Source: an uncultured delta proteobacterium (GTDB lineage: Bacteria; Desulfobacterota; WTBG01). From it: a DNA stretch of 64,000 bases. The stretch's first letter is position 1; every line of letters begins with the position of its first letter. The position numbers were made by a program, and so were the translations under genes. Location: NCBI GenBank assembly GCA_963793865.1, contig CAWCBP010000008.1, positions 355,182 through 419,181 on the forward strand. The letters run 5' to 3'. The notes beneath the pieces were generated by a model. The model did not search any database, was not told the DNA's origin, and saw only the letters and a list, made by a program, of their open reading frames with translations. Positions 3,001 through 18,810 of this stretch are shown in pieces.

Positions 3001-3080
3001 TAGGCGAAAGCGGTGCAGGTAAACGCGGATACAATGAAAAGTAGAGTTATACCTAGTATTCCATGCTGAACCTTTTTCAT
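1..3080 (-). CDS. Large secreted multidomain protein (>1026 aa, 3' end beyond window): signal peptide, tetraheme c-type region, Cys-rich TSP3-like repeat, dockerin-like pair, ferrochelatase-like domain, PKD/Ig-like domain
   Basis: Hand translation from ATG 3080 (RBS AAGGGGGG) is open to base 1; absent from the ORF track, probably because there is no stop in the window. MKKVQHGILGITLLFIVSAFTCTAFA signal; CLQCH, CLLCH, CANCH, CTDCH; DNCP..GDACD; GNFDCDLDQDGTDAAVFKKSFGR / GNFDGDSDSDGTDSAVFKSDFGR; GVLFTVHGG..YPRIGG; GQSVTFQATVVTGGTSPYTYAWS..WTPQAGDEGTYAVRCVVTDS. Confidence 0.9.
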   Translation of the reverse strand, partial: MKKVQHGILGITLLFIVSAFTCTAFAYECVAPPAAQNCLQCHSRSNIHAFHFTQIGLTDPAECLLCHNGGTGSPCRTNTGPGPVETSGCANCHSQCYEVQNHIPRGGNCTDCHVQTNEDIDDDCDGICNPGVSDVSCTGSDNCPSTPNGPNLGTCTKGVKGRTCIADYQCGTGGVCSTNQEDTSPAGGNGVGDACDCEGNFDCDLDQDGTDAAVFKKSFGRSTLSGNPCTYDNPCYGNFDGDSDSDGTDSAVFKSDFGRTSLTNPCPAAGRPVGVLFTVHGGTDTNVDQYIWDTGVQQFSYDPNNSVYKLAIWNPAYWDFVLTAESSLKFMAKYDFEYPRIGGTDPFGGLTLDQLSDMETELENDSHNIDFATDWAGWMCGDCIDHYPYPRFIYYGPDGPGVGTNCTYCGEGEPGGPWPGCDPNRYNVDGPIDRLLKQGVYRIIMVDLTVGGVRFSKTYDVKNMSQKRLDEWKNTYGITVPLLWVNDYSDLMKRSYPILPAGWTRSTGALPTQDSEVLLNGSPNPVAADPDLATLQREAIEASFSGTVSDANTGVIILNHAINDLDEVFDPKLNDTVVLNENIKDQLVALHPTMDPDNIIGARMGVKELNPEAEHSLLERTIFMRGENLGHQYLYETTKEFPSSAGYPNPSDPRGKFHPWGYLYWDAIDYLVNTKGVQHIVVGFTQIITSSALDMVEIPNQIGKEIGIKNWALWSVGDFTRYPVVGHPFADYWGNWVYQDCGEWELLFDGGTSQIAGGGTNPVSLEPGAKLVGQTSGATGIIKQVAVESGSWAGGNAAGRIVLKDLVGSFSDNETIRDDKTPFGNALANGTETQTLSSDCCFVMGGCADDPLPRPYPAPRLTPLPDRAHDLDPSLAYDLSDFGHLGYDPLVGAPDPNNPVQDQYTGTWEMYAPPDNDPRVGQLLAKQVVNAIIKPMVYLSNGEKEGTAVGQSVTFQATVVTGGTSPYTYAWSIKEAADPGWTTVGSNSTTWAWTPQAGDEGTYAVRCVVTDSKSQSGEIIWEGFGV

Positions 3081-3111
3081 TTTTACCCCCCTTACATTAA
3101 ATGAGATGACT

Positions 3112-3160
3112 AAAAAAAGGACTTTCATGCGGGTATACACCCGGCAGAGAAAGTCCCTTT
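3112..3160 (-). terminator. Intrinsic-terminator-like hairpin just upstream of the multiheme gene
   Basis: GGACTTTC(3119-3126)/GAAAGTCC(3149-3156) stem with inner GGGT/ACCC hairpin; A7 on the left (T7 on minus strand) and T4 on the right. Confidence 0.55.
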
Positions 3161-3507: not shown

Positions 3508-4008
3508 TCACTCAAAGCAGAAAACGCCTTTTTTCACCCCTGCGGGAAGAGGGTTTCTTTCTTCATCAGAAACCTTGACATTTTTTGAGGTGATATCAAC
3601 ACATCGGCCTTCAGGGGCTTCTTCCGATACATCATAGCTGACATTGATGATCTGGCCCGCCTCCGCAGGAATCGCATTGCCGCTTAATGATACGAGCATT
3701 ATTCTGAAGCAGCCGTCGGAAAGCTCGTTGAATGCGCAGGTGAATCCGGAAGCATTGCCCACGGCTTCGCAACCGACACCCTGCAGGTAGTTTCCTTTAT
3801 CGCAGATATCCGCTTGAATGCCTTTGACCGTGTTGGCAGGATTGTCAAGGGTTATCTCCACCAGGTTGTTTTCACTGCCCGGGGATCCTGAGCCGTTTTC
3901 AATGGTCAGGTAGATTTCCGCCTGTTGGCAGGAGGTCAGGCAGATGATGGCCAACGGGATGATCATAAGCATTGCTTTTGAAGTAAGGGTAAAGTGTCTC
4001 TTGTTCAT
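3508..4008 (-). CDS. Cohesin-like domain lipoprotein (166 aa)
   Basis: Start moved to ATG 4008 (MNKRHF), removing the overlap with the upstream gene; lipobox LTSC; VEITLDN..VKGIQADICDKGNYL..GQIINVSYDVSEEAPEG cohesin-like beta-sandwich; paralogous to the N-terminal domain of 4046-5614. Confidence 0.75.
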   Translation of the reverse strand: MNKRHFTLTSKAMLMIIPLAIICLTSCQQAEIYLTIENGSGSPGSENNLVEITLDNPANTVKGIQADICDKGNYLQGVGCEAVGNASGFTCAFNELSDGCFRIMLVSLSGNAIPAEAGQIINVSYDVSEEAPEGRCVDITSKNVKVSDEERNPLPAGVKKGVFCFE

Positions 4009-4045
4009 GGTGGCATCCTTTGCGCTGAGCCCGGTGAACCGGAGT

Positions 4046-5614
4046 TTACTTTCTTTTGCGGACCAGCAAAATACCGGCGACGGCAATAAAAGCTGCCAGT
4101 GCAATCAGGGTACCGGGGAAAAAGGGGCTTCCGGACTTGGCGGTCCCGCCCTCAACAGCGCCGCCGTCTGCCGGGCCGGCCGGGGAAAATGCATCGCCCG
4201 GTGCCACGGTTACCAGCGCATCGCTGCTGAGATTATCCCTGCTGTCTTTTATCATAATAATGTCGAGCGATTCCTCATTGGTCCTGTTGATGCCGGCTGT
4301 ATATAAGCCCGCCCCGGTAATGGTTGAACCGATTTTACTGCTCACTTTCCATTGGTATGCACCCTCGGCGCAGGTTTTGCCGACTTTTTTTGCAGTGAAG
4401 GTTATGACATTTCCGGGAGAGATTTCCGCCGAAGAGGGGGTCAGCAGCAACGCACAACCTTCAGAAGGTTCCTTTATGCCTTCTATGGTTATGGTTGCCG
4501 TCGCGCTCATGCTCTTATTTGAGGTGTCTGTTACACGGATGGTTTCCTGAACCGGCGAGCCGGAGGCGTTGATGCCCGCAGTAAATATCCCGTCCGCATC
4601 GATGGTGCTTCCGATGCCGCTTGGCGGAAATATCTCCCACCTGTACTTTCCCGTTACCTCTCTGCCTCCCGCGATGGTTTGAGCATCGAGCGCCAGTATT
4701 CCTTTGGAATTGATTACCGACAGGGACGGTGAGATGATCAGCCGGGATTCCTCGCTTGCGGAGTCGCTTTTTGTCCCGGATGCCCCGGCGGAACGTGTAT
4801 CGCTCTCCCGGGAGGCGGCGCTGCTTTTGCTGCCGGCAGTCCGGTTGCGGGAAGAGCCTCCGGTCGAGGTAAAGGTGTCAGTCTCAGGGGAGGCTTCCTG
4901 CACGCTGGTGGTCAATCCCCCCATGGGGGTTCTTAAGCCTGCCTGTGGATTTGCCGCGGCATTCGTGGAGTTGGTGGCGGGGGTTCCGGCCGCGGGTTCG
5001 TCCCCCGCGGTTTCAGGGCTTTCCGTGTTACCGGTATCGCCGGAGCGAGGGGTGGTGGTTGTGTCATCGCCGCTGCCGCCGCTGATGCAAAACTCACCAC
5101 GTTCCGGCATGACAGTTAATCCCCTCGAATTTAGAACTCCCGGGATTTCTGGACGTGCGACTTTTGCGAGCCTTGGATTGAGCGAGATGCAGCCGGAGGG
5201 TGCATTTTCTGAAACTTCGTAAGTGATTCGGGCGATTGGTCCATTGCCAGGTGCAATGGTATCCCCGAATCCCATAAGCGATATATCAGCGCATCCGGGA
5301 GCCTGCCGGCATGCAGCGATCTTTGCATCGGTTCTGCACTCGTTCACGTAACAGGAAAGGCTGGAAGCGCGGCCCGTAGACGCGCAGCTTTTGACGGACA
5401 GATAATTGCCTTCATCACAAATATAGACATGCACCCCCGTCACGATGTCAGATGCATTGTCGAGCGTAAGCGTTATGGAACCGTTTTCTGAACCGGCCTC
5501 CGCCGAGCCGTTTCCGATGTCAAGAATGACATCTTCGGCGTATGCCCCCGGGCAAAAACAAAGGGCTGCCAGCAGACCAAGCAGTGATACAAGGGAGGGA
5601 TTCTTAGATAGCAT
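4046..5614 (-). CDS. Cell-surface protein: signal peptide, cohesin-like domain, Ser/Thr/Gly-rich linker, two Ig-like repeats, C-terminal TM anchor with basic tail
   Basis: Signal ending AYA; ITLTLDNASDIVTGVHVYICDEGNYL..GPIARITYEVSENAPSG; low-complexity S/T linker; repeated GKYRWEI..IGSTIDADGIFTAGIN / GAYQWKV..IGSTITGAGLYTAGIN; FPGTLIALAAFIAVAGILLVRKRK. Confidence 0.8.
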   Translation of the reverse strand: MLSKNPSLVSLLGLLAALCFCPGAYAEDVILDIGNGSAEAGSENGSITLTLDNASDIVTGVHVYICDEGNYLSVKSCASTGRASSLSCYVNECRTDAKIAACRQAPGCADISLMGFGDTIAPGNGPIARITYEVSENAPSGCISLNPRLAKVARPEIPGVLNSRGLTVMPERGEFCISGGSGDDTTTTPRSGDTGNTESPETAGDEPAAGTPATNSTNAAANPQAGLRTPMGGLTTSVQEASPETDTFTSTGGSSRNRTAGSKSSAASRESDTRSAGASGTKSDSASEESRLIISPSLSVINSKGILALDAQTIAGGREVTGKYRWEIFPPSGIGSTIDADGIFTAGINASGSPVQETIRVTDTSNKSMSATATITIEGIKEPSEGCALLLTPSSAEISPGNVITFTAKKVGKTCAEGAYQWKVSSKIGSTITGAGLYTAGINRTNEESLDIIMIKDSRDNLSSDALVTVAPGDAFSPAGPADGGAVEGGTAKSGSPFFPGTLIALAAFIAVAGILLVRKRK

Positions 5615-5826: not shown

Positions 5827-7812
5827 TTAATAAGTTGGCGGGAGGTTACTCCCCGCCTGATTTTTCTTCAGCAACTCCAAAAGATCCCGGGGTATGGTGT
5901 GCCCGAGTTTTTGTATCGTTTCACATTCCTGTGCGGCTCGTGAATAATTACCCTGCAGGCAGTGAACATAAGCAAGATTAATATGTCCGGTGACCAGGGC
6001 TGGATTAATAGCCAGTCCTTTTGTAAGGTATACGAGTGCCTGATCAAAACTGTTTGTATTGAGATAGGCGGCACCGAGGTTGATGAGTGTTTCGGCGTGG
6101 AGCGGCTTTATTAAAAGCACCTTTTGATAGGCGGCAATGGCATCTTCATAACTGCCCTTGTTTAAAAAGGCATTGCCGAGGTTATAGCGAGCCTCAATAT
6201 ATCTGGGGCTGATGGACAAAGCCTTTGCGTATGCCGCTATGGCGCTTTCGAGCCTGTCTTCCTTGGCATAAACGATGCCCAGGTTGTTGAGCGTCTTGGG
6301 ATGATTGGGCTGCAGGGCCAGTGCCTGCTCATACACGGTGGCCGCGTCTTTTAATCTCCCCTGCCTGGTATAGGCCGCCCCCAGGTTATTATATCCTTCC
6401 AGATGCTCGGGGTTGATGCTCAGGGCTTTTTTAAAGTATTCCTCGCCCCGGGCCGGATTTCCCTCCTGGGTGACAATGATGCCGAGATTGTTATACGCCA
6501 TCCAGGATCGGGGATTTTTTTTGAGCGTGTCCATCCACAGCGCGGTTGAGTCGCGATAGGCATATGACTGCTGCCAGGTTAATATCCCCAGCATGAGCAG
6601 GACGATAATCCCGATGCATGTTTCCGCGTTTCGCAATCGCGCTGCCGCGCGGCTGCTTACCGTGCCTGTCCATGCGTCGAATTGCCGCCGTATGCCGCCC
6701 ACAAACACCGCGATCAGTCCCAGGCTGGCAAGGTACTGGTAATGATCGGCAACGAATGAGTAGCGCATGGTGTAGTAATTGATGAACCCCAGCATGGGGG
6801 CCAGGGTTATGGCGAACACGCACACGCCGGTCAACGGTCCGCGCCCCCATCTGTTTCTCATGTGCCACAGGACAAAGAGAAGCAGCACCAGCGCGAGGTG
6901 CCATCCGTACTGTTCCAACGCAAAGGGATCCAGCGTCCACTGGGGGTAGGAAAAGGTGAGATTCACCGGCCAGAGCAGCTTGAGCATATAAAAGCACAGG
7001 GCCCGGCCTGAAAGAAGCACGCGCTGGAAAAATGAAAAACTGAAGTCTTCTCCTATCGTTCCCTGATGATTAGCTTCCCACCAGCTTGAGAGCAGGCCCA
7101 TTGCCAAACCGGCTGCCATGAAGGGAACAAGCAGGCTTACCTCTCTCCGGGTTATGCGGCCTCTCCTCCACCAGCCCAGCAGGAGTATGACCAGCGGCAA
7201 GGTCAGGATCACCGTCTTGCTCAGGAGCCCCAGGGCAAAAAGAACGAAAGCCTGGATATACCAACGCCAGTGCCGGTTCTCCTCATAGCGCAGGTAACTC
7301 ATCAACGCCAGCAGGCAGAACATTCCCGATAAGGTGTTCTTCAGCTCCGTAACCCATGCCACCGACTCCACATGCACCGGATGAAGCGCAAAGATTGCGG
7401 CAGCCATCCAGGCCCCCTGCAGCTTGAGCCGGGTGAAGAGCAGGAAAACAAGCATGGCATTGAGGGCGTGCAGCGCTATGTTGACCAGGTGATATCCCGC
7501 GGGATTGAGATCCCACAGCCGGTGCTGAATCAGGAGCACGGTATAGGTGAGGGGGAAGTATTGAGAAGGGCTCTCGGTGGTGAACCAGATGCGCCGCAGC
7601 CCATCGGGGGCGGTTAACAGGTGGTTTTCAGTAACGTAGAGATCATCATCCCAGATGAAACCGGCGTGCGTTGCCGGATAATAAGCGATGCAGGCAATAA
7701 TAAAGAGCACGATGAGCGGGCGCCAATCCCATCTCTTGCCGGGAATAACAGCACGCGGTGTTTGCGGTGCAGGTCTATCAGCCCCTGCTTGTTTTTTAGA
7801 TTTCTTTCCCAT
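5827..7812 (-). CDS. TMTC-like GT-C membrane glycosyltransferase with C-terminal TPR repeats
   Basis: FIWDDDLYV luminal acidic motif, LHPVHVESVAWVTE, multiple TM helices, about 7 TPRs (AYNNLG, TLNNLG, ARYNLG). Start ATG 7812 or GTG 7860. Confidence 0.85.
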   Translation of the reverse strand: MGKKSKKQAGADRPAPQTPRAVIPGKRWDWRPLIVLFIIACIAYYPATHAGFIWDDDLYVTENHLLTAPDGLRRIWFTTESPSQYFPLTYTVLLIQHRLWDLNPAGYHLVNIALHALNAMLVFLLFTRLKLQGAWMAAAIFALHPVHVESVAWVTELKNTLSGMFCLLALMSYLRYEENRHWRWYIQAFVLFALGLLSKTVILTLPLVILLLGWWRRGRITRREVSLLVPFMAAGLAMGLLSSWWEANHQGTIGEDFSFSFFQRVLLSGRALCFYMLKLLWPVNLTFSYPQWTLDPFALEQYGWHLALVLLLFVLWHMRNRWGRGPLTGVCVFAITLAPMLGFINYYTMRYSFVADHYQYLASLGLIAVFVGGIRRQFDAWTGTVSSRAAARLRNAETCIGIIVLLMLGILTWQQSYAYRDSTALWMDTLKKNPRSWMAYNNLGIIVTQEGNPARGEEYFKKALSINPEHLEGYNNLGAAYTRQGRLKDAATVYEQALALQPNHPKTLNNLGIVYAKEDRLESAIAAYAKALSISPRYIEARYNLGNAFLNKGSYEDAIAAYQKVLLIKPLHAETLINLGAAYLNTNSFDQALVYLTKGLAINPALVTGHINLAYVHCLQGNYSRAAQECETIQKLGHTIPRDLLELLKKNQAGSNLPPTY

Positions 7813-7882
7813 ATGAAAAAAAGCTTTTAGAGTGTCCTGCAGTGCCGGAGATGGCGTCACGGTAAACTTCAGACGCTTCTCA

Positions 7883-7957: not shown

Positions 7958-7986
7958 TTGTCTGTCATGCGTTTTTATGCTACAAT
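7958..7986 (+). promoter_or_regulatory. sigma70-like promoter (extended -10) for the AlkP operon
   Basis: TTGTCT-N17-TACAAT with TGn before the -10. Confidence 0.55.
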
Positions 7987-8060: not shown

Positions 8061-10190
8061 ATGAATTCATCAAGAGTTGCACGTTTAAGCATAACTGCAG
8101 CCGCGCTGCTTCTTGTCCTTGTGCCCCTGAGGGCACATGCCTATATCGGGCCGGGGGCGGGCTTTGCGGTTGCCGGTTCATTCCTGGTCATGTTCGCGGC
8201 GATGGTATCGGCCCTGTTTCTTATGCTGACCTGGCCGGTCCGCTACGTGGTGAGGGCCATACGTTTCAGAAGGGTTTTTGCCCGCAGCCGGGTCAAGAAA
8301 GTGGTGGTGCTGGGGCTCGACGGCCTCGATTATGCGCTGACCGGAAAGTGGATTGCCGAGGGCAAGCTTCCCAACTTTGCAAAGCTGCGCGATCAGGGCT
8401 GTTTCAAACCCCTTGCCTCAACCGTTCCGCCCATTTCCCCGGTTGCCTGGTCATCCTTTCAGACCGGCACCAACCCGGGGAAGCACAACATCTTCGATTT
8501 CCTCACCCGCGACCGGAGAACCTATGCGGCAAAGCTGAGCTCTACAGCCATCAGGGAATCGTCACGCGCGATCAGCCTCGGGAAATATCGCATCCCGTTG
8601 GGATCGGCCGACATACGCCTGCTGCGCAAAGGGCTTCCCTTCTGGAAAATTCTCGGCGATCAGGGGATATTCAGCAGCGTCATTCGCGTTCCCATCACCT
8701 TTCCTCCTGAAAAGTTTTACGGCATCCAGCTCTCGGCCATGTGCGTGCCCGACCTGCGCGGCACCCAGGGAATGTTTTCATATTATACAACCGAGCCGGG
8801 CGGGAACGGCCGCAGCACCGCGGGCGAAAATTTTCAGGTGCAGAAAAACGGCAACACGGTGAAGGGAGAGCTGGTGGGACCCAAAAATCCCATGCTGCAG
8901 GCGGGCGGGCTGCTCACCTGCCCCTTTGCGGTCACGCTTAACGGTGATGAGGTTGCCACCCTCAGAATCAGCGGGAAGACGGTGAGGCTCAGGGCGGGCG
9001 AGTACTCTGACTGGATAAAGGTTGTTTTTAAGGCCCCGCTCGGTGTCAGGATAGCGGGGATCTGCAGGTTCCTGCTGAAGAGCACCGCCCCGGAGTTCAA
9101 ATTGTATGTTACTCCCATTAATATCGACCCGGAAAAGCCGGCGATGCCCATCAGCCATCCCCCGGTGTATGCCACCTATCTTTCCAAGCGGCAGGGTCCC
9201 TACGCCACGCTCGGGCTTGCCGAAGACTCGTGGGCGCTGAACGAGAAACTGATAAGCGATGACGATTTTCTGGAGCAGTGCCTGCAGCACGACGGCGAAC
9301 GGGAGAGGATGTTTTTTGATTCCCTGGACAATATACGGCGGGGGCTGTGCGTCTGCGTTTTTGACGGGACGGACCGGGTTCAGCACACCTTCTGGCGGCA
9401 GCTGGACAGGGATCATCCCGCTCACGAGGACAAGGGCTCAGCACCGGAACATTCGGCCATTGAGGAAATATACAAGCGTGCCGATGCGCTGCTTGGCAGG
9501 ACCCTTGATAAATGCAGGGACAAGGACACCCTGCTCATGGTCATTTCCGATCACGGGTTCAGTTCATTCCGTTACGGCGTTGACCTGAATCGCTGGCTTG
9601 AGGAAAACGGCTATCTGAAGTTGAAAGAGGGAGGCGGTGACAAAGAGAATCTTGCTGCGGTCGACTGGTCACAAACCCGGGCCTATGCCATCGGCCTTGC
9701 AGGACTCTACCTGAACCTCAAGGGGCGAGAAGGGCAGGGCATCGTCGATCCCCGGACCGAGGCGCCGGCGCTGCGGGATGAAATAGCGCGGAAGCTGCTC
9801 AGCCTCAGGGACCCCATACGGAACCAGCCCGCGGTAAAGGGTGTTTATAACGCCTGGACGGTATACAGCGGGCCTTACCGGGAGGATGCCCCGGACCTGA
9901 TCGTCGGCTATCATGCGGGCTATCGCGCCTCGTGGGAAACAGCGGTGGGAAAGGTGACCGGCGGCATTTTCCACGACAATGTGAAGGCCTGGAGCGGGGA
10001 TCACTGCATTGACCGGTCACTGGTTCCCGGCGTGCTTTTCTGCAACCGCAGGATTGCTGATGAGCACCCGAGGCTCATGGACATCGGCCCCACCGTGCTC
10101 GATCTGTTTGGTGTAAAGGTACCCGCCCACATGGACGGCAAACCGCTCGCCGTGGCCATCGGCGGAAAGGACGCCCCGTCGGCGGCATAG
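8061..10190 (+). CDS. Alkaline phosphatase superfamily protein (type I phosphodiesterase/NPP-like, COG3379-like), membrane-anchored
   Basis: VVVLGLDG, PPISPVAWSSFQTG nucleophile loop, FDGTDRVQH, ISDHG, WSGDHC; N-terminal signal then YIGPG plus TM helix. Confidence 0.85.
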   Translation: MNSSRVARLSITAAALLLVLVPLRAHAYIGPGAGFAVAGSFLVMFAAMVSALFLMLTWPVRYVVRAIRFRRVFARSRVKKVVVLGLDGLDYALTGKWIAEGKLPNFAKLRDQGCFKPLASTVPPISPVAWSSFQTGTNPGKHNIFDFLTRDRRTYAAKLSSTAIRESSRAISLGKYRIPLGSADIRLLRKGLPFWKILGDQGIFSSVIRVPITFPPEKFYGIQLSAMCVPDLRGTQGMFSYYTTEPGGNGRSTAGENFQVQKNGNTVKGELVGPKNPMLQAGGLLTCPFAVTLNGDEVATLRISGKTVRLRAGEYSDWIKVVFKAPLGVRIAGICRFLLKSTAPEFKLYVTPINIDPEKPAMPISHPPVYATYLSKRQGPYATLGLAEDSWALNEKLISDDDFLEQCLQHDGERERMFFDSLDNIRRGLCVCVFDGTDRVQHTFWRQLDRDHPAHEDKGSAPEHSAIEEIYKRADALLGRTLDKCRDKDTLLMVISDHGFSSFRYGVDLNRWLEENGYLKLKEGGGDKENLAAVDWSQTRAYAIGLAGLYLNLKGREGQGIVDPRTEAPALRDEIARKLLSLRDPIRNQPAVKGVYNAWTVYSGPYREDAPDLIVGYHAGYRASWETAVGKVTGGIFHDNVKAWSGDHCIDRSLVPGVLFCNRRIADEHPRLMDIGPTVLDLFGVKVPAHMDGKPLAVAIGGKDAPSAA

Positions 10191-10217
10191 AGGCCGGGTG
10201 CCGGAGGCATAGCGTAT

Positions 10218-12245
10218 ATGAAAAATATCAGCAGAAGAAATTTCATCAAGCGGTCCGCATGTGCCGCCGCCGCACTGGCAACGGGCATGGGCGTCGCCCC
10301 GGCATTTGCCGTCAGGAAAGGACGGGCAAACGCAGCGGGGAAACAAGTCATCGTGATCGGTTTTGACGGCATGGATCCCGGGCTGGCCCGGCAATTGATG
10401 AACGCCGGCAGGCTGCCCAACCTGGAGCGCTTGCGAAGGCAGAACGGATACCGCGTGCTCGGGACCAGCATCCCTCCGCAGAGCCCCGTGGCCTGGGCCA
10501 ACTTCATCAACGGCGCCGGGCCCGGTTCCCACGGCATCTTCGACTTTATCCACCGTGATCCTGAGCGGCAGGCCTATCCGTTTTTCGCCGCCGCTGAAAC
10601 GGTACCGGGCGAGGGCTATCTTGAATGGGGCGAGCATAAACTGCAGCTCGACTTCTGGCCCTTCAATCATAAGCCGGCCAGAACCGTGCTGCAGAGACAG
10701 GGGACTCCCTTCTGGGATTATCTTGACCGGGAGGGAATTCCCTCCACCTTTTATGACCTGCCCTCGAACTATCCGCCCAGCCCTTCGCGCTACGGCAACC
10801 ATCGATGCCTCTCCGGCATGGGGACGCCCGACCTGCAGGGAAGCTATGGGACCTACCAGCACTTTGCCGAGGACGGGCCCGCGCAGACCCAATCCGAGGG
10901 GGGCGGAAAGCGGTCGAGAATCCATTTTGAAGGTGATACCTCCCTTCCGCTGGCACTTCTGGGGCCGAGGAACACCCTGCTCAAGGATCCCCGGGATGCC
11001 GTCATCAATTTTACCCTTCACCGAGACCGGGACGCGGGCGCCGCGGTGGTGGAGATCCAGAAGCACACCCTGGTTCTCAAACAGGGGGAGTGGAGTCCCT
11101 GGATACCCCTTGATTTCGGGCTTTCCACTCCGGCGATGCTGCCGGATAAACACGTGAGCGGCATCTGCCGCTTCTACCTGCAGGAAGTTTCCCCCTGCTG
11201 CCGGCTGTATGTGAGCCCCATCAATATCAATCCCGCCAGCCCGGCGATCCGGATTACCGAGCCCGAAGAATTCTCTCAGGAAATGGCGCACCGCCTGGGC
11301 CTTTTCGCCACCACCGGATTCCAGGAGGACCACAAGGCCCTGTCGAATAAAATTTTTACCGATGACGAGTTTGCCCGGCAGGCCGACCATGTGCTGCAGG
11401 AACGCATGAACCTGCTCGATTATGCCTTGCGGAACTATGATGACGGACTGCTGTTTTTCTACTTCTCCAGCACCGACCTCCAGTCCCACATGTTCTGGTG
11501 GGACTGCGACGCGACGCATCCCGTCCGGTCCCGGGAAGCGGCGATACACTACTTCGGGCAGCTGCAGGATCTCTATGCCCGGATGGACGCGGTGGTGGGT
11601 GATCTGCTCAAGCGCTACGGAGACAGGGCCCACATCATGGTCATGAGCGATCACGGCTTTTCCAATTTCGTGCGCCAGTTCAACCTGAACACCTGGCTGC
11701 GCGATAACGGCTATCTCGGCTCCCCCGACAGCACCTCCATCATGGACCGGGGCTTCGAATGGTCAAAAAGCCGCGCCTTCGGCCTGGGCATCAACAGCCT
11801 CTATCTCAATCTCAAGGGGCGGGAGCGTTACGGTACCGTGGAACCCGGCCCTGAGCGGGAGGGACTGCTGGAAGAGCTTGCGCGCAAGCTGGTGGCCGTC
11901 CGTGACCGCGACGGCAGGCAGGTCATCCGGGCGGTCCACCGGGCCGACAAAGTGTACGCGGGTACGGCCACGCGTTACGCCCCCGATTTGATTATCGGCT
12001 ACAGCCGCGATTTCCGCGCTTCATGGAAAACGGTGCTCGGGGACATGACCGATGAGGTGATGCTCGATAATGAGTCGGCCTGGAGCGCCGACCACTGCAT
12101 GGATGCGTCCGAAGTGCCCGGGGTGTTATTCAGCAACCGGCCCATCGCGGCGCCGAACCCCGCGCTTGCGGACCTGGCGCCCTCGATACTTACAGCGTTC
12201 GGTTTAGGGATACCATCGGACATGACCGGCAGAAATATTTTTTAG
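10218..12245 (+). CDS. Alkaline phosphatase superfamily protein, Tat-exported paralog
   Basis: SRRNFIK twin-arginine signal; IGFDG, PPQSPVAWANF, MSDHG, WSADHC. Confidence 0.85.
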   Translation: MKNISRRNFIKRSACAAAALATGMGVAPAFAVRKGRANAAGKQVIVIGFDGMDPGLARQLMNAGRLPNLERLRRQNGYRVLGTSIPPQSPVAWANFINGAGPGSHGIFDFIHRDPERQAYPFFAAAETVPGEGYLEWGEHKLQLDFWPFNHKPARTVLQRQGTPFWDYLDREGIPSTFYDLPSNYPPSPSRYGNHRCLSGMGTPDLQGSYGTYQHFAEDGPAQTQSEGGGKRSRIHFEGDTSLPLALLGPRNTLLKDPRDAVINFTLHRDRDAGAAVVEIQKHTLVLKQGEWSPWIPLDFGLSTPAMLPDKHVSGICRFYLQEVSPCCRLYVSPININPASPAIRITEPEEFSQEMAHRLGLFATTGFQEDHKALSNKIFTDDEFARQADHVLQERMNLLDYALRNYDDGLLFFYFSSTDLQSHMFWWDCDATHPVRSREAAIHYFGQLQDLYARMDAVVGDLLKRYGDRAHIMVMSDHGFSNFVRQFNLNTWLRDNGYLGSPDSTSIMDRGFEWSKSRAFGLGINSLYLNLKGRERYGTVEPGPEREGLLEELARKLVAVRDRDGRQVIRAVHRADKVYAGTATRYAPDLIIGYSRDFRASWKTVLGDMTDEVMLDNESAWSADHCMDASEVPGVLFSNRPIAAPNPALADLAPSILTAFGLGIPSDMTGRNIF

Positions 12246-12339
12246 CAGGCGGTTGAAAAACACCCATCTGCTTTGTGGCTCAAAGGGAGGGGCTTTTGAC
12301 GCCACAACATTTCTACAACCTTTTAGGGCGAGATGTTCA

Positions 12340-12528
12340 ATGGCCAAGATCAAGATTGATTCCAAGCTCTTTGACCGCGCGAAAGAAGCGGCGGAGAAGG
12401 CGGGATACGCCAGCACCGAAGAGTTTATCACCCACCTTATTGAGAAAGAGGTCGCGCGGCTGGAATCGCCGCCTGCCGGGGATGATGCCGTCGCGGACCA
12501 GCTTCGGGGCCTGGGATATATTGAATGA
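12340..12528 (+). CDS. Small protein (62 aa), ribbon-helix-helix/CopG-like N-terminus with C-terminal LRGLGYIE tail
   Basis: Start moved to ATG 12340 (MAKIKIDSKLFDRAKEAAEKAGYASTEEFITHLIEKE); stop overlaps next start (ATGA). Confidence 0.7.
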   Translation: MAKIKIDSKLFDRAKEAAEKAGYASTEEFITHLIEKEVARLESPPAGDDAVADQLRGLGYIE

Positions 12529-13370
12529 CTGAACTTTTGCTGCGGACGCTGACGGGGATAAACACGGTCACCAATGCTCTCGGCGATATGCTGCAGGCGC
12601 CGGTTGCGACAATGCCGGGGTGGCTTTCCATCACCATCCTGTCCGCGGCGGTCGGGGTGCTTGCCCTGATTATTTTCAAATACACCTCCAATCAGAAGGC
12701 GATCGGCCGCGTCAGGGACGACATCAAGGCCAACCTCCTGGCCGTCAAGCTCTTCAGGGACAATTTCTCCGTGGCCTTCCGGTCGCAGGCACGGGTCATG
12801 GCTGCCGCCGTAAAGCTGCTGGTTTATTCCCTGGTGCCGATGCTGGTTATCATCCTGCCGGTGTGCCTGGTGCTTGCCCAGATGGGTTCGTGGTATCAGG
12901 TCCGCCCTGTGCGGCCGGGGGACGGGCAGGTCACGGTACAATTAAAAATGAACCATCGCGCCGGCACCCTCCCGCAGGTTTCGCTTGACCCCCTCCCCGG
13001 TATCCGCCTCCTCACCGGGCCGGTTCGGGTCCCCAGCAGGGATGAGATTTATTTCAGGCTTCAGCCGCTGGAGTACGGGAACCACACCCTCGTTTTTCAT
13101 ATCGGAGACGCCCGGTATGAAAAGCAGCTGGCCGTCGGCGAAGGCTTCATGCGGGTAAGCCCCAGGCGGCCGGGCGCAAACCCGGGGGATGTTTTGCTGT
13201 ATCCCATGGAAAAACCGTTCTCTTCCGGCGATCACGTTGGGTCGATCAGCATTGCCTATCCGGCACGGGAATCGAAAATTTTTGGAACCGACTGGTGGAT
13301 TGTCTATTTTTTTCTGGCCTCCATGGCATTCGCCATGCTCTGTAAACCTTTTCTGAAAGTGAGGATATAA
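12525..13370 (+). CDS. Membrane protein resembling DUF106/EMC3-TMCO1 family with inserted soluble beta-domain
   Basis: TM1, coiled segment (FKYTSNQKAIGRVRDDIKANLL), TM2 (SLVPMLVIILP), C-terminal WWIVYFFLASMAFAMLCKPFLKV. Confidence 0.6.
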   Translation: MTELLLRTLTGINTVTNALGDMLQAPVATMPGWLSITILSAAVGVLALIIFKYTSNQKAIGRVRDDIKANLLAVKLFRDNFSVAFRSQARVMAAAVKLLVYSLVPMLVIILPVCLVLAQMGSWYQVRPVRPGDGQVTVQLKMNHRAGTLPQVSLDPLPGIRLLTGPVRVPSRDEIYFRLQPLEYGNHTLVFHIGDARYEKQLAVGEGFMRVSPRRPGANPGDVLLYPMEKPFSSGDHVGSISIAYPARESKIFGTDWWIVYFFLASMAFAMLCKPFLKVRI

Positions 13371-13373
13371 GCA

Positions 13374-13949
13374 ATGGAGCAGAAGCCGTTTATTACCATT
13401 GTTTCGGGCCTTCCGCGCTCGGGGACATCCATGATGATGCAGGTGATTGAAGCCGGGGGCGTTCCCGCCCTCACCGATAACCTGCGCACCAGGGATGAGG
13501 ACAACCCCCAGGGATATTATGAATTCGAGCCGGTAAAGAAGACCAGGGAGGACCCATCCTGGGTCCCGGGGGCACGCGGAAAGGTGGTCAAGATGGTGTA
13601 CCGCCTGCTGTATGATCTGCCCGGTGACCAGGAGTACCGCGTCATCTTCATGCGCAGGAACATCGATGAGGTCCTGACCTCGCAGAAAAAAATGCTTCAG
13701 CGCTCGGGCAAGCCGGGCGCGGCCATCAGCGATGAAAGATTGAAAGAGCTGTTTCTGGCCGAGCTGGACAAGTTCGATCGCTGGATAGCGGAACAAAAGA
13801 ACTTCTCGATCATCGAGGTTGATTACAGCGACATGGTTGCCTCCCCCGGGACGCAGTGCAAGCGCATTAATGAATTTCTCGGAGGGGTCCTTGATAGTGA
13901 CCGCGCGGCCGCGGCGGTGAATCCGTCCTTGTACCGCAACCGGAGCTGA
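13374..13949 (+). CDS. Sulfotransferase family protein (P-loop, PAPS-binding)
   Basis: IVSGLPRSGTSMMMQ 5'-PSB loop; VIFMRRNIDEVLTSQ 3'-PB-like motif; no signal peptide. Confidence 0.85.
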   Translation: MEQKPFITIVSGLPRSGTSMMMQVIEAGGVPALTDNLRTRDEDNPQGYYEFEPVKKTREDPSWVPGARGKVVKMVYRLLYDLPGDQEYRVIFMRRNIDEVLTSQKKMLQRSGKPGAAISDERLKELFLAELDKFDRWIAEQKNFSIIEVDYSDMVASPGTQCKRINEFLGGVLDSDRAAAAVNPSLYRNRS

Positions 13950-14063
13950 TATTCCGGGGACACCATACGCAATGTGATGTTGCATGGAACGGAATGCTCT
14001 TTTTTATGCACTATTACGTATGGTGTCCCCAAATGACTTGAAGGTAAAAGTCAACAGGTAAGC

Positions 14064-14094
14064 AAAGGGCCTGGCATTGAGCCGGGCCCTTTTT
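14064..14094. terminator. Bidirectional terminator between convergent operons
   Basis: AAA-GGGCCTGGC-ATTGA-GCCGGGCCC-TTTTT. Confidence 0.7.
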
Positions 14095-14118: not shown

Positions 14119-16275
14119 TCAGGGTTCCGGCTCAAATACCAGGATATAACGCTGCGGGATGAATTGTGCCCGGTCAACCAGGCGGAAGCCGTAGTGCTTC
14201 AGCTGGCTGATGATGAGCTCCGGGGCGATGCGGGGGCCGTAGTAGGGATTTTCAGCGTCCGCCAGGACGGCATTGTCGGCGATGACCAGCCGGGCGCCTT
14301 TTCGCAGGGAGCGCTTGAGGCTGTTGATGAAACCGTCTTTCACATATTCCAGCGAGCCCATGTAGATGGCGTGATACACGGAGCAGATGTACACCAGGTC
14401 CACGCTTTCGGGAGGCAGCGCGGCGTCATTGTCCCGGGCCAGGACGGTCTGAATGTTGCGCACCCCGTTTTTTATCGACACCTCCCTGACATAGTCAAGC
14501 ATGGCTTGCGTGGTGTCGGTGGCGTAAACCATGCCATCCGGGCCTGCCAGTTCCGCGAACTTGAAGGTGTAATAGCCGGGGCCGCAGCCGATATCCGCGA
14601 TGCGGGTGCCGGGCTTGATGTTGAGAAACTCAATGACCCTGCCGGTGCGCTCCCAGTTTTCGCGATAGGGGCTGCTGAAGGCAATGAACTCGCCCCATTC
14701 GTTAAGCTGGCCCTGGGTCACCGGGGCGGATCCGGGAAGCTCCAGGTCGCGAATGGAGAGCTTCTGAGCGCCCGGGCCGGCGTGCGCCGCGTCTTCGTCG
14801 TCGAGCACGGCGTCGAAATAATATTTATAGCGCAGATAGGTCTTCAATACCCTGAAGTCGTCAACTGCCAGCCGCTCGAAGTAGCTGCGGACAAACCAAT
14901 GGGCAAGCAACTCCTGTCTTAACCGGGGTGAGGCAAGCAGATACTCGCAGAACCATTGCCAGGCAAGATATTCGTCGCCGAACCGCTCCCGGGGAATCAA
15001 CGCCCTGTAGGCTTCCAGGGCCGCATTGATGGTTGGCGGGTCCTTCTTTTCCAGGGCTGTGTACATCAGCCGCGCTGCCCGCCGGCCGGCCAGGGTAAAG
15101 CCCGGGGAGGAGGCGATCGGCGAGGAACGGAGCAAAGAAGATTTTGAGATGAGGGGGACGCAGTCATCGCCGAGTGGTCGGTCAAGCGGCGCGGGCTGCG
15201 GCTCCTCCGGCATCATCTTAAACACCAGGATGTAGCGCTGGGGAATGAACTGGTAGCTTTTGACCAGCTGCAGGCCATAATACCAGAGCTGGTTGATGAT
15301 CAGTTCCCTGGCGAGATGGGGACCATGATAGGGAAGAGTCCTGTCTTCAACCAACCCGTTGTCCACGATCACCAGCATACCGTCCGGCTTGAGGTTGCTC
15401 TTGATGCTGTTGATGAATGTGCCGCGCTCTTCATCGGTGTCCAGGGCATATATATTGTGATACAGCGAGCAGAGGTAGGCCATGTCCGCTTTCCGGGGAA
15501 GCAGCATGCCTGTTGACGCCGGCACCACTGCTTCCACGTTCTTCACGCTGAGCTTCTTCACCAGCTTCGATACATAGTCAATATGCTGCTGATTGGTGTC
15601 TACCGCATACACAAGGCCGCGCTCGCCGACCATTTCCGCGAACTTGAAGGTATAGTAGCCGGGGCCGCAGCCGATGTCGGCCACCACGTCGCCCTTTTTC
15701 AAACCGAGGACTTCAAGGATGCTTCCGGTCTTTTCCCATCGCTCGCGCCGGGGATTGTTGAAGAGGATGAAATCCTCCAGAAAGCGGAACCTTGGCTCCG
15801 ACTTGGGCGTCGCCCGGTCCTTCCATTCCAGCAGGTGGTACTTCTTCTTGAGGTAGTCCCTGAGCGGCTCGAAGTCATCCCGGGAGAGATAATCGTACCA
15901 CGCAGCCGTGATGGGGTCGGCGAGCATCTTCTCCCGCTCCTTTCCGGATGCCGCCATGAACTCGCCGATCCATTCCAGCGCGGTGTATTCCCCGCCGAAA
16001 TTCTCCGAGGGTATGATCTGCCGGTAGATCTCTATCGCCTCACGGGCGGGCCGTGGATCCTTCCGGGTCAGACAGTCATACATCAGCGAGGCCGCCCTGG
16101 TGCCGCCTTCGGTGATGTCGAAGGAATCGAGGCTGCCCAGATGAATGAGGGAGGCCCTGGAGGTAACGCGGATGAAATGCGGGGGCGCCGACGGGACATC
16201 AGGCTGCCTGAGCAAAGGAGGCGGGGGCTGCCGCAACGGCGCCGAGCAGGAGGTAACTAAATAAAGAGGTTTCAT
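14119..16275 (-). CDS. Tandem (internally duplicated) class I SAM-dependent methyltransferase, 718 aa
   Basis: ADIGCGPGYYTFKFAE occurs twice; both halves end QFIPQRYILVF; ATGA overlap with upstream gene. Confidence 0.85.
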   Translation of the reverse strand: MKPLYLVTSCSAPLRQPPPPLLRQPDVPSAPPHFIRVTSRASLIHLGSLDSFDITEGGTRAASLMYDCLTRKDPRPAREAIEIYRQIIPSENFGGEYTALEWIGEFMAASGKEREKMLADPITAAWYDYLSRDDFEPLRDYLKKKYHLLEWKDRATPKSEPRFRFLEDFILFNNPRRERWEKTGSILEVLGLKKGDVVADIGCGPGYYTFKFAEMVGERGLVYAVDTNQQHIDYVSKLVKKLSVKNVEAVVPASTGMLLPRKADMAYLCSLYHNIYALDTDEERGTFINSIKSNLKPDGMLVIVDNGLVEDRTLPYHGPHLARELIINQLWYYGLQLVKSYQFIPQRYILVFKMMPEEPQPAPLDRPLGDDCVPLISKSSLLRSSPIASSPGFTLAGRRAARLMYTALEKKDPPTINAALEAYRALIPRERFGDEYLAWQWFCEYLLASPRLRQELLAHWFVRSYFERLAVDDFRVLKTYLRYKYYFDAVLDDEDAAHAGPGAQKLSIRDLELPGSAPVTQGQLNEWGEFIAFSSPYRENWERTGRVIEFLNIKPGTRIADIGCGPGYYTFKFAELAGPDGMVYATDTTQAMLDYVREVSIKNGVRNIQTVLARDNDAALPPESVDLVYICSVYHAIYMGSLEYVKDGFINSLKRSLRKGARLVIADNAVLADAENPYYGPRIAPELIISQLKHYGFRLVDRAQFIPQRYILVFEPEP

Positions 16276-17744
16276 GGTTTTGAACAGCTTTCCCGGGCAA
16301 TATGCGGGGGTCCTGAGTGAGTTCCGTGCATATAAGGATTAAGCGGGCCGTCCGCATAGCGTGCCGGGGCAAACGGCATATATTCCTTCTGGTGAAACTG
16401 CTGCACCACCTCGTCGGCGAAAAACGCCCCCAGCGGGGTAAGCTCAACGCGGGACCCGGTTTCGCTGATAAGCCCGAACTCTTTAAGGCCTGCAAAAATG
16501 CCGGGGAAGGCTTCGGCCAGGGGAACCCCGGTCACCGCTTCAAAATGCTTTTTTCTGATAAAATAGTTCTTCAGCGGCAGTATGATTGCCCACCGCGTCT
16601 GCTCATCTTTGCTGCGCACCAGGCCGCGATTGAGCGGCAGGCGCCCCGCCTCAACGGCGCCATAGTACTCGTCAAAGTACTGCACGTTCAGGCTGAAGCG
16701 GTCGCGCATGCTGCTGAACGCGGTCAGCCCGAACCCTATCTGGTCGAGCAGGGCGCAGCACTGGTTGAAGGCGTACAGCGAAATGTCCGACCGTTTCCTG
16801 GTAAACACCCGCCGCAGGTTCTCGTGAAAGCCGCTGCGGGCGAGCAGGTCGATGGCCACCTGCTTCATCAGGAACATGTCTTCAACCGCTATCATTTCAT
16901 CGGGACGGATCTCCCGCACCTTTTGAATCACCCCCTGCTGGTCCCCGTAGGGTATGACCTTGAGCCGGTAAAACTGGATTTCGTCGACGCCGGCGCCCAG
17001 CGCCTGCTCCAGCACCGCCACCCAGTTTTCCATGGTCTGACCGGGATACCCGAAGATGAATTCAATGTTCACCTTGTAGCCGTATTCCTGCGAGTTCCTG
17101 ATGGACTCAAGCGCAACCGCGGCATCATGTGAACGGTTCATCCGTTTGAGTATGGCGTCATTGAAGGACTGCACCCCGATGGTCAGGCGGTTGACGCCGA
17201 ACGACCTCATGATGCGCAGCCGCTCCCTGCCTTCGGGACCCACCAGGGTTGAAGGATCAACGTCATAATTGAACTGCCGGCATCCGCCCATGTCCAGCCG
17301 GGAGGTGAAGAAGGTCAGGAAGCGCTCCAGCTGTGCCGGGGTCAGGTCGGTCGGCGTCCCGCCGCCGACCAGGATGGAGCGCGCTTTAATGGAGCTGATT
17401 CCCAGCCGGCGCAGGTAGAGATCCATCTCCCTTTCCAGCGCAGTGAGGTAGCGGTCTTTTTCCGCATCAGCCGCGCCGTAGAGGGAGGGATAGTGGCAGA
17501 ACACGCAGCGGCGCATGCAAAAGGGAATGTGCACGTAGAGATCAAACATGCCGTCCGGCGGCAGGGTGTACGTGTCAAACAGCGCTTCTTCGGTAACCGG
17601 CGGATACATGGTAATCGGCGGATAGTGGACCGAGGGGAAGAAGTCCCCGTCCATGGGAACGAGCCCCGCCTTCCTGAGCCGCCGGTAATCGTCCAGTCTC
17701 GGGCGGGCCGCATCCAGCATTTCCCTGATTTCGCCGCTACGCAT
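16272..17744 (-). CDS. HemN-like (class C type) radical SAM enzyme
   Basis: YVHIPFCMRRCVFCHY CX3CX2C, VGGGTPT, RLTIGVQSF, FIFGYPGQT; start moved to ATG 17744, overlapping upstream stop. Confidence 0.85.
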   Translation of the reverse strand: MRSGEIREMLDAARPRLDDYRRLRKAGLVPMDGDFFPSVHYPPITMYPPVTEEALFDTYTLPPDGMFDLYVHIPFCMRRCVFCHYPSLYGAADAEKDRYLTALEREMDLYLRRLGISSIKARSILVGGGTPTDLTPAQLERFLTFFTSRLDMGGCRQFNYDVDPSTLVGPEGRERLRIMRSFGVNRLTIGVQSFNDAILKRMNRSHDAAVALESIRNSQEYGYKVNIEFIFGYPGQTMENWVAVLEQALGAGVDEIQFYRLKVIPYGDQQGVIQKVREIRPDEMIAVEDMFLMKQVAIDLLARSGFHENLRRVFTRKRSDISLYAFNQCCALLDQIGFGLTAFSSMRDRFSLNVQYFDEYYGAVEAGRLPLNRGLVRSKDEQTRWAIILPLKNYFIRKKHFEAVTGVPLAEAFPGIFAGLKEFGLISETGSRVELTPLGAFFADEVVQQFHQKEYMPFAPARYADGPLNPYMHGTHSGPPHIARESCSKP

Positions 17745-18810
17745 GAAAGGCCTCCATGGAGAGTCGCATGCCCGCGCGGCGCACAATGTCTTCAAGGTGC
17801 GCTTCATTCGGCACAACGCGCTTGAGGGAGTAGATGGGGAAAAGGCGCTTCAGCTCCGGGGGCGTTCCGTCGTGAATGGTGACGGTATTGGCGCCGGCCG
17901 TCAATCCGCGGTACTGCCCCTCCGGCGCTGCTTTTTCCAGGGAACTGGTGGCCGGCATGAGCACGGAGGGATTCATGATCCTCATCAGGGCCATGACGGC
18001 AAGGGTACGATCCAGGCTCCCCATCGGTTCATCCCGGCAGCAGGAGTCTTCCGAGGGGATAAATGCCGTGCAGCTCACCATGGACAGGGGATATTGTTGC
18101 ACCAGCAGCAAATCAGCCGCGATGTCCTCCAGCGTCTGGCCGGGCAGGCCGACGATGTTTCCGGTGCCGACCGCGAAGCCGGCGGACAAAAGGTGCTCAA
18201 TGCACGCCAGCCGCCGCGTGAGCGAGTCACCGGGTTTCAATTGTTCATAGAGCGCGGGATTGGCTGTTTCAAACTTGAGAATATAGCGCTCCGCCCCCGC
18301 TTTCCTGAGCCGGCGATACTGGTCGGGACGCAGATTGCCGAGGCACAGGATGACCAGCAGGTCGCTGAAGCGGGCCTTCACCCTCTCGACGCAGCGGCAC
18401 ACATAGTCGACAAAGGATTGAGCGGGGTTTTCACCCGACTGCAGGAGTATGACCCGCCTGCCCTTCAGGTAAACGGAGGCAACAATTTGTTCAAATGCCT
18501 CCGGGTCAATCCGGTAGCGTTCCCGCTTCGAGCTTCTGGCCATGTTGCAATAGAGGCAGTCGCGCACGCAGGTATTGGATATTTCGATCACGCTCCGCAC
18601 TTCCACTTTTTTTTCAGGAAAGTGGAGGTCCCGCGTCTTCCGTGCCAGGGCAAAGAGAAGGGATTGCGCTTCACCGTCGAAGGAGAGTGCCTCTTTCAGC
18701 AGGGAGGGATGGAAATCACCGCTCGCAAGCGCATCAATCACTTCATGAAATGCCATCTGCCGCGTGCTTTCGACACACATGGTATCCTGTCCCTTGGTGA
18801 CTCTGCTCAC
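17737..18810 (-). CDS. HydE/PylB-like (BioB-family) radical SAM enzyme
   Basis: VRSVIEISNTCVRDCLYCNM, LLQSGE, YILKFETAN, VGTGNIVGLPGQT, MPATSSL, GANTV. Confidence 0.85.
   Translation of the reverse strand: MSRVTKGQDTMCVESTRQMAFHEVIDALASGDFHPSLLKEALSFDGEAQSLLFALARKTRDLHFPEKKVEVRSVIEISNTCVRDCLYCNMARSSKRERYRIDPEAFEQIVASVYLKGRRVILLQSGENPAQSFVDYVCRCVERVKARFSDLLVILCLGNLRPDQYRRLRKAGAERYILKFETANPALYEQLKPGDSLTRRLACIEHLLSAGFAVGTGNIVGLPGQTLEDIAADLLLVQQYPLSMVSCTAFIPSEDSCCRDEPMGSLDRTLAVMALMRIMNPSVLMPATSSLEKAAPEGQYRGLTAGANTVTIHDGTPPELKRLFPIYSLKRVVPNEAHLEDIVRRAGMRLSMEAFHA

Follow-up and report, generated by a model that had tools for sequence, protein, structure and literature searches.

A conserved four-gene cassette of two AlkP-superfamily enzymes, a small protein and a membrane protein, often followed by a sulfotransferase gene, in an uncultured Desulfobacterota bacterium and other uncultured bacteria

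Enzymes of the NPP/PhnA branch of the alkaline phosphatase (AlkP) superfamily (PF01663), which include Xanthomonas NPP, ENPP1/5/6 and phosphonoacetate hydrolase (PhnA), carry a metal site formed by an Asp, a Thr nucleophile, two Asp-His pairs and a His. Cytosolic 3′-phosphoadenosine-5′-phosphosulfate (PAPS) sulfotransferases (SULTs) are proteins of ~295 amino acids, and the catalytic base is a His in SULTs and a Glu in TPST and the heparan sulfotransferases. Ribbon-helix-helix (RHH) antitoxins and regulators are represented by CopG, the VapB-like PSK_trans_fac family, TacA and the N-terminal domain of NikR, while periplasmic modification of the cell envelope from membrane-borne donors is exemplified by the Arn pathway (ArnC/ArnE-F/ArnT) and the phosphotransferases EptA, LtaS and OpgB. 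The Oxa1 superfamily, comprising YidC, EMC3, GET1, TMCO1 and the archaeal DUF106/Ylp1 proteins (MJ0480), has a common layout consisting of an extracytoplasmic N-terminus, a first transmembrane helix (TM1), a cytosolic coiled-coil, TM2, TM3 and a cytoplasmic C-terminus (Anghel et al., PMC5868721). Here, a locus is described in which relatives of the first two groups are encoded side by side with possible remote relatives of RHH and Oxa1-superfamily proteins. It is located in a 64,000 nucleotide stretch of DNA (hereafter the window) from an uncultured delta proteobacterium (Desulfobacterota; WTBG01), corresponding to positions 355,182 to 419,181 of the forward strand of contig CAWCBP010000008.1 (assembly GCA_963793865.1).

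The locus consists of five co-directional genes on the + strand, encoding two AlkP-superfamily proteins, A1 (8061-10190; 709 aa) and A2 (10218-12245; 675 aa), a small protein s (12340-12528; 62 aa), a membrane protein M (12525-13370; 281 aa) and a sulfotransferase ST (13374-13949; 191 aa). Re-derivation of the coordinates gave the same spacing of 27, 94, -4 and 3 nt as in the first-pass annotation, with the stop codon of s overlapping the start codon of M (ATGA). The ATG at 12340 is taken as the true start of s, rather than the start of a longer TTG-initiated open reading frame (ORF) from 12253, as ~70 homologs begin with MAKIKID.

Two peptide patterns of M were searched for in 185,579 species genomes, yielding 75 loci, of which 73 are non-duplicate. 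All of these derive from metagenome-assembled genomes (MAGs) or a single-amplified genome, assigned to the Thermodesulfobacteriota, Planctomycetota (Pirellulales, Phycisphaerae, Sedimentisphaerales, Gemmataceae and Isosphaeraceae), Verrucomicrobiota, Kiritimatiellales and Acidobacteriota. When the window proteins were mapped on the locus ORFs, the order A1-A2-s-M was observed in nearly every case in which it was visible, with s found beside M in 67/72, A2 in 63/64 and A1 in 58/61 cases, and with median gaps of 18 nt (A1-A2), 39 nt (A2-s) and -1 nt (s-M). As the same order recurs across phyla, this arrangement lies far beyond chance. An ST gene directly follows M in 28/67 loci and occurs elsewhere in the locus in five more, while Pfam identifies 25/67 of the genes immediately downstream of M as sulfotransferases. 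The conservation that had been expected of the five genes as a set thus holds for the core only: the conserved unit is the four-gene cassette A1-A2-s-M, with ST its commonest accessory.

Proteins of the A1/A2 type are numerous (>7700 found), and the M family comprises 2342 clusters at 50% identity (E ≤ 1e-3). A search for cultured or named carriers of the cassette returned only “hypothetical proteins” of MAGs. The closest genome-resolved relative is locus L006 of an uncultured Thermodesulfobacteriota MAG, with 76% amino acid identity for M, and metagenomes from freshwater, sediment and soil contain near-identical DNA. No account of the cassette turned up in the literature searched. Its parts belong to known superfamilies, while their assembly is without a named counterpart in that literature, and there is a real chance that it represents something more distinct.

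Both A1 (109.6 bits; E-value: 3e-31) and A2 (108.2 bits; E-value: 8e-31) match PF01663 well above the gathering threshold of 23 bits, in agreement with their initial assignment to the AlkP superfamily, and share 36% amino acid identity with one another. Residues D50, S89, D420/H424, D478/H479 and D625/H626 (A2 numbering) do not vary among 34 sequences of A1 and A2, and the motifs DG-x-D, PP-x-SPVAW (PPISPVAW in A1), TD-x3-H, SDHGF and (G/A)DHC are likewise invariant. As the metal ligands and the Ser nucleophile are all invariant, both proteins are probably active enzymes, and judged by these motifs they are likely to be catalytically competent. They are predicted to be bimetallo phosphodiesterase/phosphotransferase-type enzymes of the NPP/PhnA branch, with which they have the metal-site pattern in common. 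They differ from that branch, however, in the use of Ser in place of Thr as nucleophile, in a β-rich domain of ~200 aa inserted into the catalytic core, and in their occurrence as a paralog pair predicted to lie inside and outside the membrane by virtue of a hairpin anchor and a twin-arginine (Tat) signal, respectively. The AlphaFold2 (AF2) model of A2 (pLDDT: 72.7; pTM: 0.76) contains this β-rich insert, which accounts for the low TM-scores of the model in Foldseek, where the best matches are nevertheless PhnA, ENPP1/5/6, autotaxin, SPAP and the Xanthomonas (Xac) NPP, with a probability of 1.00 for PhnA, ENPP1/5/6 and Xac NPP. A sequence search of the PDB with A1 alone was uninformative.

The N-terminus of A1 comprises a signal-like helix, the motif A-x-A-YIGPGAGFA (AHA-YIGPGAGFA in the window), a second helix and a run of six to nine Arg/Lys residues, all of which are kept in ~55 homologs. 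By the positive-inside rule this hairpin and the adjoining basic run predict a catalytic domain that faces the cytoplasm. The hairpin was also considered as a general sorting signal and rejected, since the YIGPGAGFA motif is confined to A1 proteins. A2, by contrast, begins with a Tat signal (SRRNFIK; TIGR01409: 23.7 bits against a cutoff of 16.7), the twin-arginine motif of which is present in 55-56 of 59 A2 orthologs, predicting a periplasmic location. A1 and A2 would therefore lie on opposite faces of the inner membrane.

M is predicted to consist of an N-terminal helix, TM1, a Lys/Arg-rich helical loop in the cytoplasm, TM2, an immunoglobulin (Ig)-like β-sandwich (residues ~130-245) in the periplasm and TM3. 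In the AF2 model (pLDDT: 78) helices span residues 32-54, 57-76, 81-123 and 257-277. The loop, which opens with the invariant sequence FKYTSNQ, carries nine Lys/Arg residues between positions 53 and 92 and is predicted to be cytoplasmic by the positive-inside rule. Scans with Pfam and NCBIfam returned no family for M. When a profile of the M family was compared against the PDB, MJ0480 (DUF106/Ylp1) was the sole match below an E-value of 0.1 (E-value: 0.004), covering TM1-loop-TM2, and many M homologs are named “DUF106 family” in the JGI annotation. A remote relationship of M to archaeal DUF106/Ylp1 proteins, and as such to the Oxa1 superfamily, the layout of which it would follow, is plausible but unproven. 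Unlike those proteins, M is bacterial, has an Ig-like domain inserted between TM2 and TM3, and is almost never found apart from A1, A2 and s, which does not fit a housekeeping insertase.

The acidic protein s is composed of an RHH-like N-terminal half, an acidic linker and a C-terminal tail, LRGLGYIE (12502-12525), which takes the form L-[RKQ]-G-L-G-Y-[IL]-x in the ~70 family members listed. An alignment of 20 of these shows residues G22, Y23, L55, G57, L58, G59 and Y60 to be invariant, and identity across phyla is 45-70%. Neither Pfam nor NCBIfam gave a usable family for s. Its first 40 residues follow a strand-helix-G-x-S-helix pattern as in RHH proteins, and weak matches to RHH_1 (4/20 members; best E-value: 1.3e-4) and PSK_trans_fac (6/20) are found among the 20 members, the window protein itself being unmatched; weak PDB matches include 1y9b and NikR, and weak FitA-like and TacA-like matches are also found. 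In contrast to RHH regulators, s is far better conserved across phyla than is usual, and its tail is shared with enzymes. A role for s as a Tat chaperone of A2 was considered and rejected, as s is no different in loci whose A2 carries a Sec-type signal.

The motif L-x-x-L-G-Y-[ILVMF] (hereafter LGY) occurs 118 times in the ORFs of the loci, against 5.2 occurrences in residue shuffles. It is carried by 22/31 sulfatase-like, 6/13 arylsulfotransferase-like and 3/4 CysD-like proteins, and by none of the M or ST proteins. Its position is C-terminal, or between the catalytic and tetratricopeptide repeat (TPR) domains, in the sulfatase-like enzymes, internal in the arylsulfotransferase-like and terminal in the CysD-like proteins, and an acidic or polar stretch usually precedes it. 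Besides the window, the motif is present in loci L001, L005, L017, L019, L024, L027-L029, L032, L033, L035, L038, L041, L044, L046, L051, L055, L057, L060, L070, L073, L075, L077 and L079. LGY may represent a docking or modification motif.

ST is a minimal PAPS-type sulfotransferase with a predicted cytoplasmic localization (PF13469: 41.1 bits, gathering threshold 27; PF00685: 28.8 bits, gathering threshold 22). The PAPS-binding elements, the absence of which would have spoken against the sulfotransferase assignment made earlier, are intact: the 5′-phosphosulfate-binding (PSB) loop G12-L-P-R-S-G-T-S19 and the 3′-phosphate-binding pair R95…S103 are invariant in 13 homologs and align with the PSB loop and RNxxDxxxS motif of SULTs, the spacing of eight residues between Arg and Ser being that of SULT1A1. 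Profile matches are to SULT1A/1C/2B proteins (SULT1A3/1A1/1C3; E-value: ~2e-5), while NCBIfam contains no matching model. PDB matches of ST to armadillo-repeat proteins were set aside as an artefact of low complexity in residues 10-42. ST differs from cytosolic SULTs in its short length and in the lack of an invariant His; the invariant residues E50 and E52 of the 13 homologs are candidates for the catalytic base.

The ORFs in the neighbourhoods of the 73 non-duplicate loci were clustered and scanned with Pfam and NCBIfam. ST is present in 30/73 loci, mostly directly after M, proteins of the PF00884 “sulfatase” family in 20/73, often fused to TPR domains and in L017, L024 and L077 located between A1 and A2, arylsulfotransferase-like proteins (PF05935) with signal peptides in 12/73, encoded directly upstream of A1, and CysD (NF003587; E-value: 1.6e-108) in 4/73, while TauE and SulP proteins are encoded in one locus each. 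The CysD proteins, encoded beside the cassette in L005 (5254-6066), L028, L066 and L075, are shortened (270 aa, with a 31-residue gap relative to E. coli CysD, at 41% amino acid identity). In L005 the cysD gene directly follows M, the position occupied by ST elsewhere, and a gene for a TauE-family transporter comes next. The formylglycine signature C/S-x-P-x-R is missing from the cassette-adjacent PF00884 proteins (L001, L004, L017, L024, L029, L075, L077 and others), and those inspected have T-x-P-x-H at the nucleophile (PWTLPSH, PITLPAH); the sole PF00884 member with a true formylglycine signature, in L051, is encoded 5 kb away. With weak matches to EptA, LtaS and YejM, these neighbours resemble Thr-type phosphoester hydrolases or transferases and, judging by their motifs, are probably not sulfatases. 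As such, they were dropped as evidence for sulfate-ester hydrolysis. The first-pass annotation had suggested a sulfation or phospho/sulfo-transfer pathway for the envelope. The recurrent sulfotransferase, arylsulfotransferase-like, CysD, TauE and SulP neighbours fit such a pathway, although the pathway itself, its substrate and its product stay at the level of inference.

A connection to glycans made by a divergent glycosyltransferase had likewise been raised. The gene upstream of A1 (5827-7860, - strand) does encode a GT-C protein with PMT_2 and TPR domains according to Pfam, as had been noted. A true homolog of the GT-C domain, with the same PMT_2 and TPR architecture, is, however, found only in L021, where it is encoded directly after M, the matches in other loci being to the TPR part only. 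L004 carries a PMT_2 gene 5 kb downstream. The association is therefore rare, and decoration of glycans made by the divergent enzyme is not upheld as a general role. In one lineage (L016, L018, L082 and L083) a small GT2 gene follows ST (231 aa in L016, L018 and L083). In L016, L018 and L083 a gene for an Lnb_N/DUF7840/DUF7843 protein also precedes A1, forming with ST and GT2 a co-directional block of seven genes, while in L082 an FGE-sulfatase-like gene takes its place. A link to glycans may exist in some lineages, but the cassette does not share it as a conserved trait.

We tentatively suggest that the cassette encodes a membrane-spanning phosphoester-processing module coupled to the sulfation of envelope precursors, a reading to which we give somewhat less than an even chance, and any specific substrate much less. 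In such a module, A1 would process a membrane-associated phosphodiester precursor, most probably a building block of the envelope carried on a lipid, on the cytoplasmic side, where ST would sulfate it with PAPS. The precursor would then cross the membrane at M, a hub joining both sides and possibly an Oxa1/DUF106-like groove protein, and A2 would process or transfer it in the periplasm, in other genomes with the help of Thr-type “sulfatase-like” transferases, arylsulfotransferase-like proteins and GT-C/TPR enzymes. The small protein s would serve as a cytoplasmic adaptor or regulator which docks by means of its LGY tail. The topology, based on the positive-inside rule and the signal sequences, is inferred, as are complex formation, the substrate, the direction of flow and translocation by M. 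The proposed sequence of cytoplasmic modification and periplasmic transfer would be analogous to that of the Arn pathway, EptA, LtaS and OpgB, and genes for Thr-nucleophile PF00884, GT2 and GT-C proteins lie near the cassette in some loci; the defining proteins of those systems are, however, not present, and the core enzymes of the cassette are of the NPP type.

Several observations weigh against this suggestion. Fewer than half of the loci carry ST, a homolog of ST is also found with no cassette in the vicinity (among the loci recovered via ST instead of M, the cassette was present twice, along with a GT2 gene, and ST was solitary once, in L084), and in 23/73 loci no ST, arylsulfotransferase-, sulfatase- or CysD-like gene is found in the available sequence, many of the contigs being short. 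The nearest PDB and NCBIfam matches of A1 and A2 are remote (PDB E-value: 1e-4 or weaker), confidence in the A2 model is low in the region of the nucleophile loop (residues 89-131), and no characterised close homolog points to a substrate or product of either enzyme. The description of M as DUF106-like, for which the MJ0480 match and the layout speak, is weakened by the lack of any match to PF01956 or another Pfam family at E ≤ 10 for 15 full-length members, four N-terminal halves and six distant members, by an hhalign probability of only 30%, and by Foldseek searches with the M model, which return Ig-like domains only and no insertase. Given its resemblance to DNA-binding RHH proteins, s may be a plain regulator. 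As for the LGY motif, E. coli CysD ends in ELKKRQGYF, which aligns with the end of the cassette-linked CysD, so that the GY tail is native to this protein and the CysD share of the LGY pattern is to be discounted. LGY proteins are furthermore predicted on both sides of the membrane, which is hard to square with a single docking partner, while paralogous receptors, A1 on the inside and A2 on the outside, would accommodate it, as would the two soluble portions of M. Finally, co-transcription is backed by a single ambiguous contig, from a run labelled “METAGENOMIC RNA-Seq” but of uncertain RNA status, which bridges the A2 stop and the s start (11961-12380), and metatranscriptome contigs are sparse.

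The same genes can be read as an operon for phosphate economy, in which A2 and the Thr-type sulfatase-like enzymes, as exported phosphodiesterases, scavenge the phosphate of organic esters, phosphodiester head groups of the inner leaflet are removed by A1 and replaced by sulfated, phosphorus-free ones supplied through ST and the sulfate-activation genes, and s acts as an RHH repressor. Tat-exported AlkP-superfamily phosphodiesterases such as PhoD and PhoX are typically phosphate scavengers, lipid phosphodiesterases of the NPP family (ENPP6 and autotaxin) are among the Foldseek matches of A2, the accessory genes mostly encode further enzymes of the phosphoesterase type, and s has RHH-like features. 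Pho-regulon genes (pstSCAB, phoBR) are, however, missing from the family counts of the neighbourhoods, and a search for operator DNA in the regions upstream of A1, the one location covered, found no k-mer common to more than 8/57 of them, so that a conserved operator expected for a repressor was not seen there. The strict pairing with M and the LGY motif are also left unexplained. We regard this explanation as unlikely.

A second explanation concerns M itself, which together with s as a cytosolic factor could constitute an Oxa1-type insertase or assembly chaperone for the A1 hairpin, and perhaps for signal-anchored accessory enzymes, with no translocation of small molecules. This would be compatible with the membrane-spanning module proposed above. 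It would draw on the Oxa1-superfamily layout of M (PMC5868721), its top PDB profile match to MJ0480 and the location of its best-conserved motifs at the membrane interfaces, and the N-terminus of A1 resembles the substrates of Oxa1-type proteins, which take the form of a simple helical hairpin whose translocated loop is short. The inconclusive homology of M to DUF106/Oxa1 proteins counts against it, as does its failure to account for the periplasmic Ig-like domain and for the conservation of A2 and s, and such bacteria should already possess YidC. There is, in our view, only a modest chance that M acts in this manner.

The four-gene core might also constitute an unrecognised trans-membrane enzyme system, in which M, as a bacterial groove protein of the Oxa1/DUF106 type, couples cytoplasmic A1 and periplasmic A2, and a short C-terminal LGY peptide code, borne by s and by the accessory enzymes of sulfation and phosphotransfer, recruits partners to it; we consider this unlikely. 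The Tyr of the motif might alternatively be the phenol to which sulfate is passed by ST in the cytoplasm or, in the periplasm, by the arylsulfotransferase-like enzyme, with A1 and A2 writing or erasing a related phosphoester mark. Arylsulfotransferases are known to use phenols, the Tyr is invariant and lies beside acidic residues, these neighbourhoods in particular are strongly enriched in the motif, and ST and arylsulfotransferase-like genes co-occur with the cassette. However, many loci keep s unchanged without either gene, the ST profile is nearer to cytosolic SULTs than to tyrosylprotein sulfotransferases, and the GY tail is an ordinary family feature of CysD, all of which makes such a modification very unlikely. 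That s and M form an antitoxin-toxin-like or regulatory pair beside unrelated enzymes, with no common pathway, as the weak PSK_trans_fac, FitA-like and TacA-like matches of s and the overlap of its stop codon with the M start would suggest, is close to refuted by the near-absence of s-M without preceding A1-A2 across five phyla and by the lack of any sign that the pair is mobile.

The five genes had been annotated as an operon with one promoter and one terminator. A sigma-70-like promoter candidate (TTGTCT-17-TACAAT, TG-extended; 9/12 matches) is present at 7958-7986 on the + strand, in the 200-nt intergenic region between A1 and the divergent GT-C gene. This region contains five promoter-like sites against 3.1 ± 1.9 in shuffles, however, and as the count does not exceed that of the shuffles, the match carries little weight by itself; the sequence proposed as the single promoter thus exists, but as a weak candidate. 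The terminator is convincing. The hairpin at 14064-14094 is flanked by T-runs on each side and folds on both the + strand (ΔG: -23.3 kcal/mol; z: -3.8) and the - strand (ΔG: -20.4 kcal/mol; z: -4.1), which suggests a bidirectional intrinsic terminator common to the cassette and the convergent methyltransferase gene (14119-16275, - strand). The sole Rfam match in the region, to SorX, lies at this terminator and is below threshold. The spacing, the terminator and the gene order kept elsewhere argue for an operon, although the promoter match is weak and the evidence of transcript continuity thin.

Between the ST stop codon and the terminator lies a near-perfect hairpin of 76 nt (13956-14031; ΔG: -46.9 kcal/mol; z: -6.8). 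It has no T-run and might serve to stabilise the transcript or represent a repeat element. The A2-s spacer (12246-12339, + strand) is unusually long at 94 nt, the median of related loci being 39 nt, and contains two hairpins (fold z: -2.6). Some metagenome and RNA contigs, the flanks of which are unrelated, match positions 12242-12308 only, hinting at a short element common to other loci.

Elsewhere, the window contains ordinary chromosomal genes, among them those for radical-SAM enzymes, a MacB/HlyD pump and the shikimate pathway. The convergent gene at 14119-16275 encodes a protein of 718 aa made up of a duplicated unit, a ~190-aa unknown domain together with an S-adenosylmethionine (SAM) methyltransferase, the halves of which are 42% identical; this double methyltransferase gene is also convergent to the cassette in L006. 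Two overlapping radical-SAM genes (16272-17816 and 17737-18810, - strand) are located downstream of it on the same strand and may form an operon with it, and they show no relation to the cassette in other loci. Towards the start of the window, two adjacent genes (3508-4104 and 4046-5614, - strand) encode secreted proteins with a common N-terminal domain of ~140 aa (37% identity) that belongs to no Pfam family. The longer of the two is Ser/Thr-rich and ends in a hydrophobic helix and RKRK, with a sub-threshold match to the GVDTG-CTERM sorting domain. A further ORF of 1046 aa (3-3140, - strand) matches no Pfam family at E ≤ 1e-4.

Metagenomes commonly contain the cassette, which extends over at least five phyla of uncultured anaerobic bacteria from sediment and freshwater, and all members examined are annotated as hypothetical or with generic names. 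If M is truly of the Oxa1 type, the DUF106 branch (EMC3/Ylp1) would be extended into bacteria, in a specialised role. If the link to sulfation is real, the cassette bears on the sulfation and remodelling of envelope components in diderm bacteria. A system coupled by M and guided by an LGY code would, if it exists, allow sulfation-linked envelope chemistry to take place outside the cytoplasm, where PAPS is unavailable.

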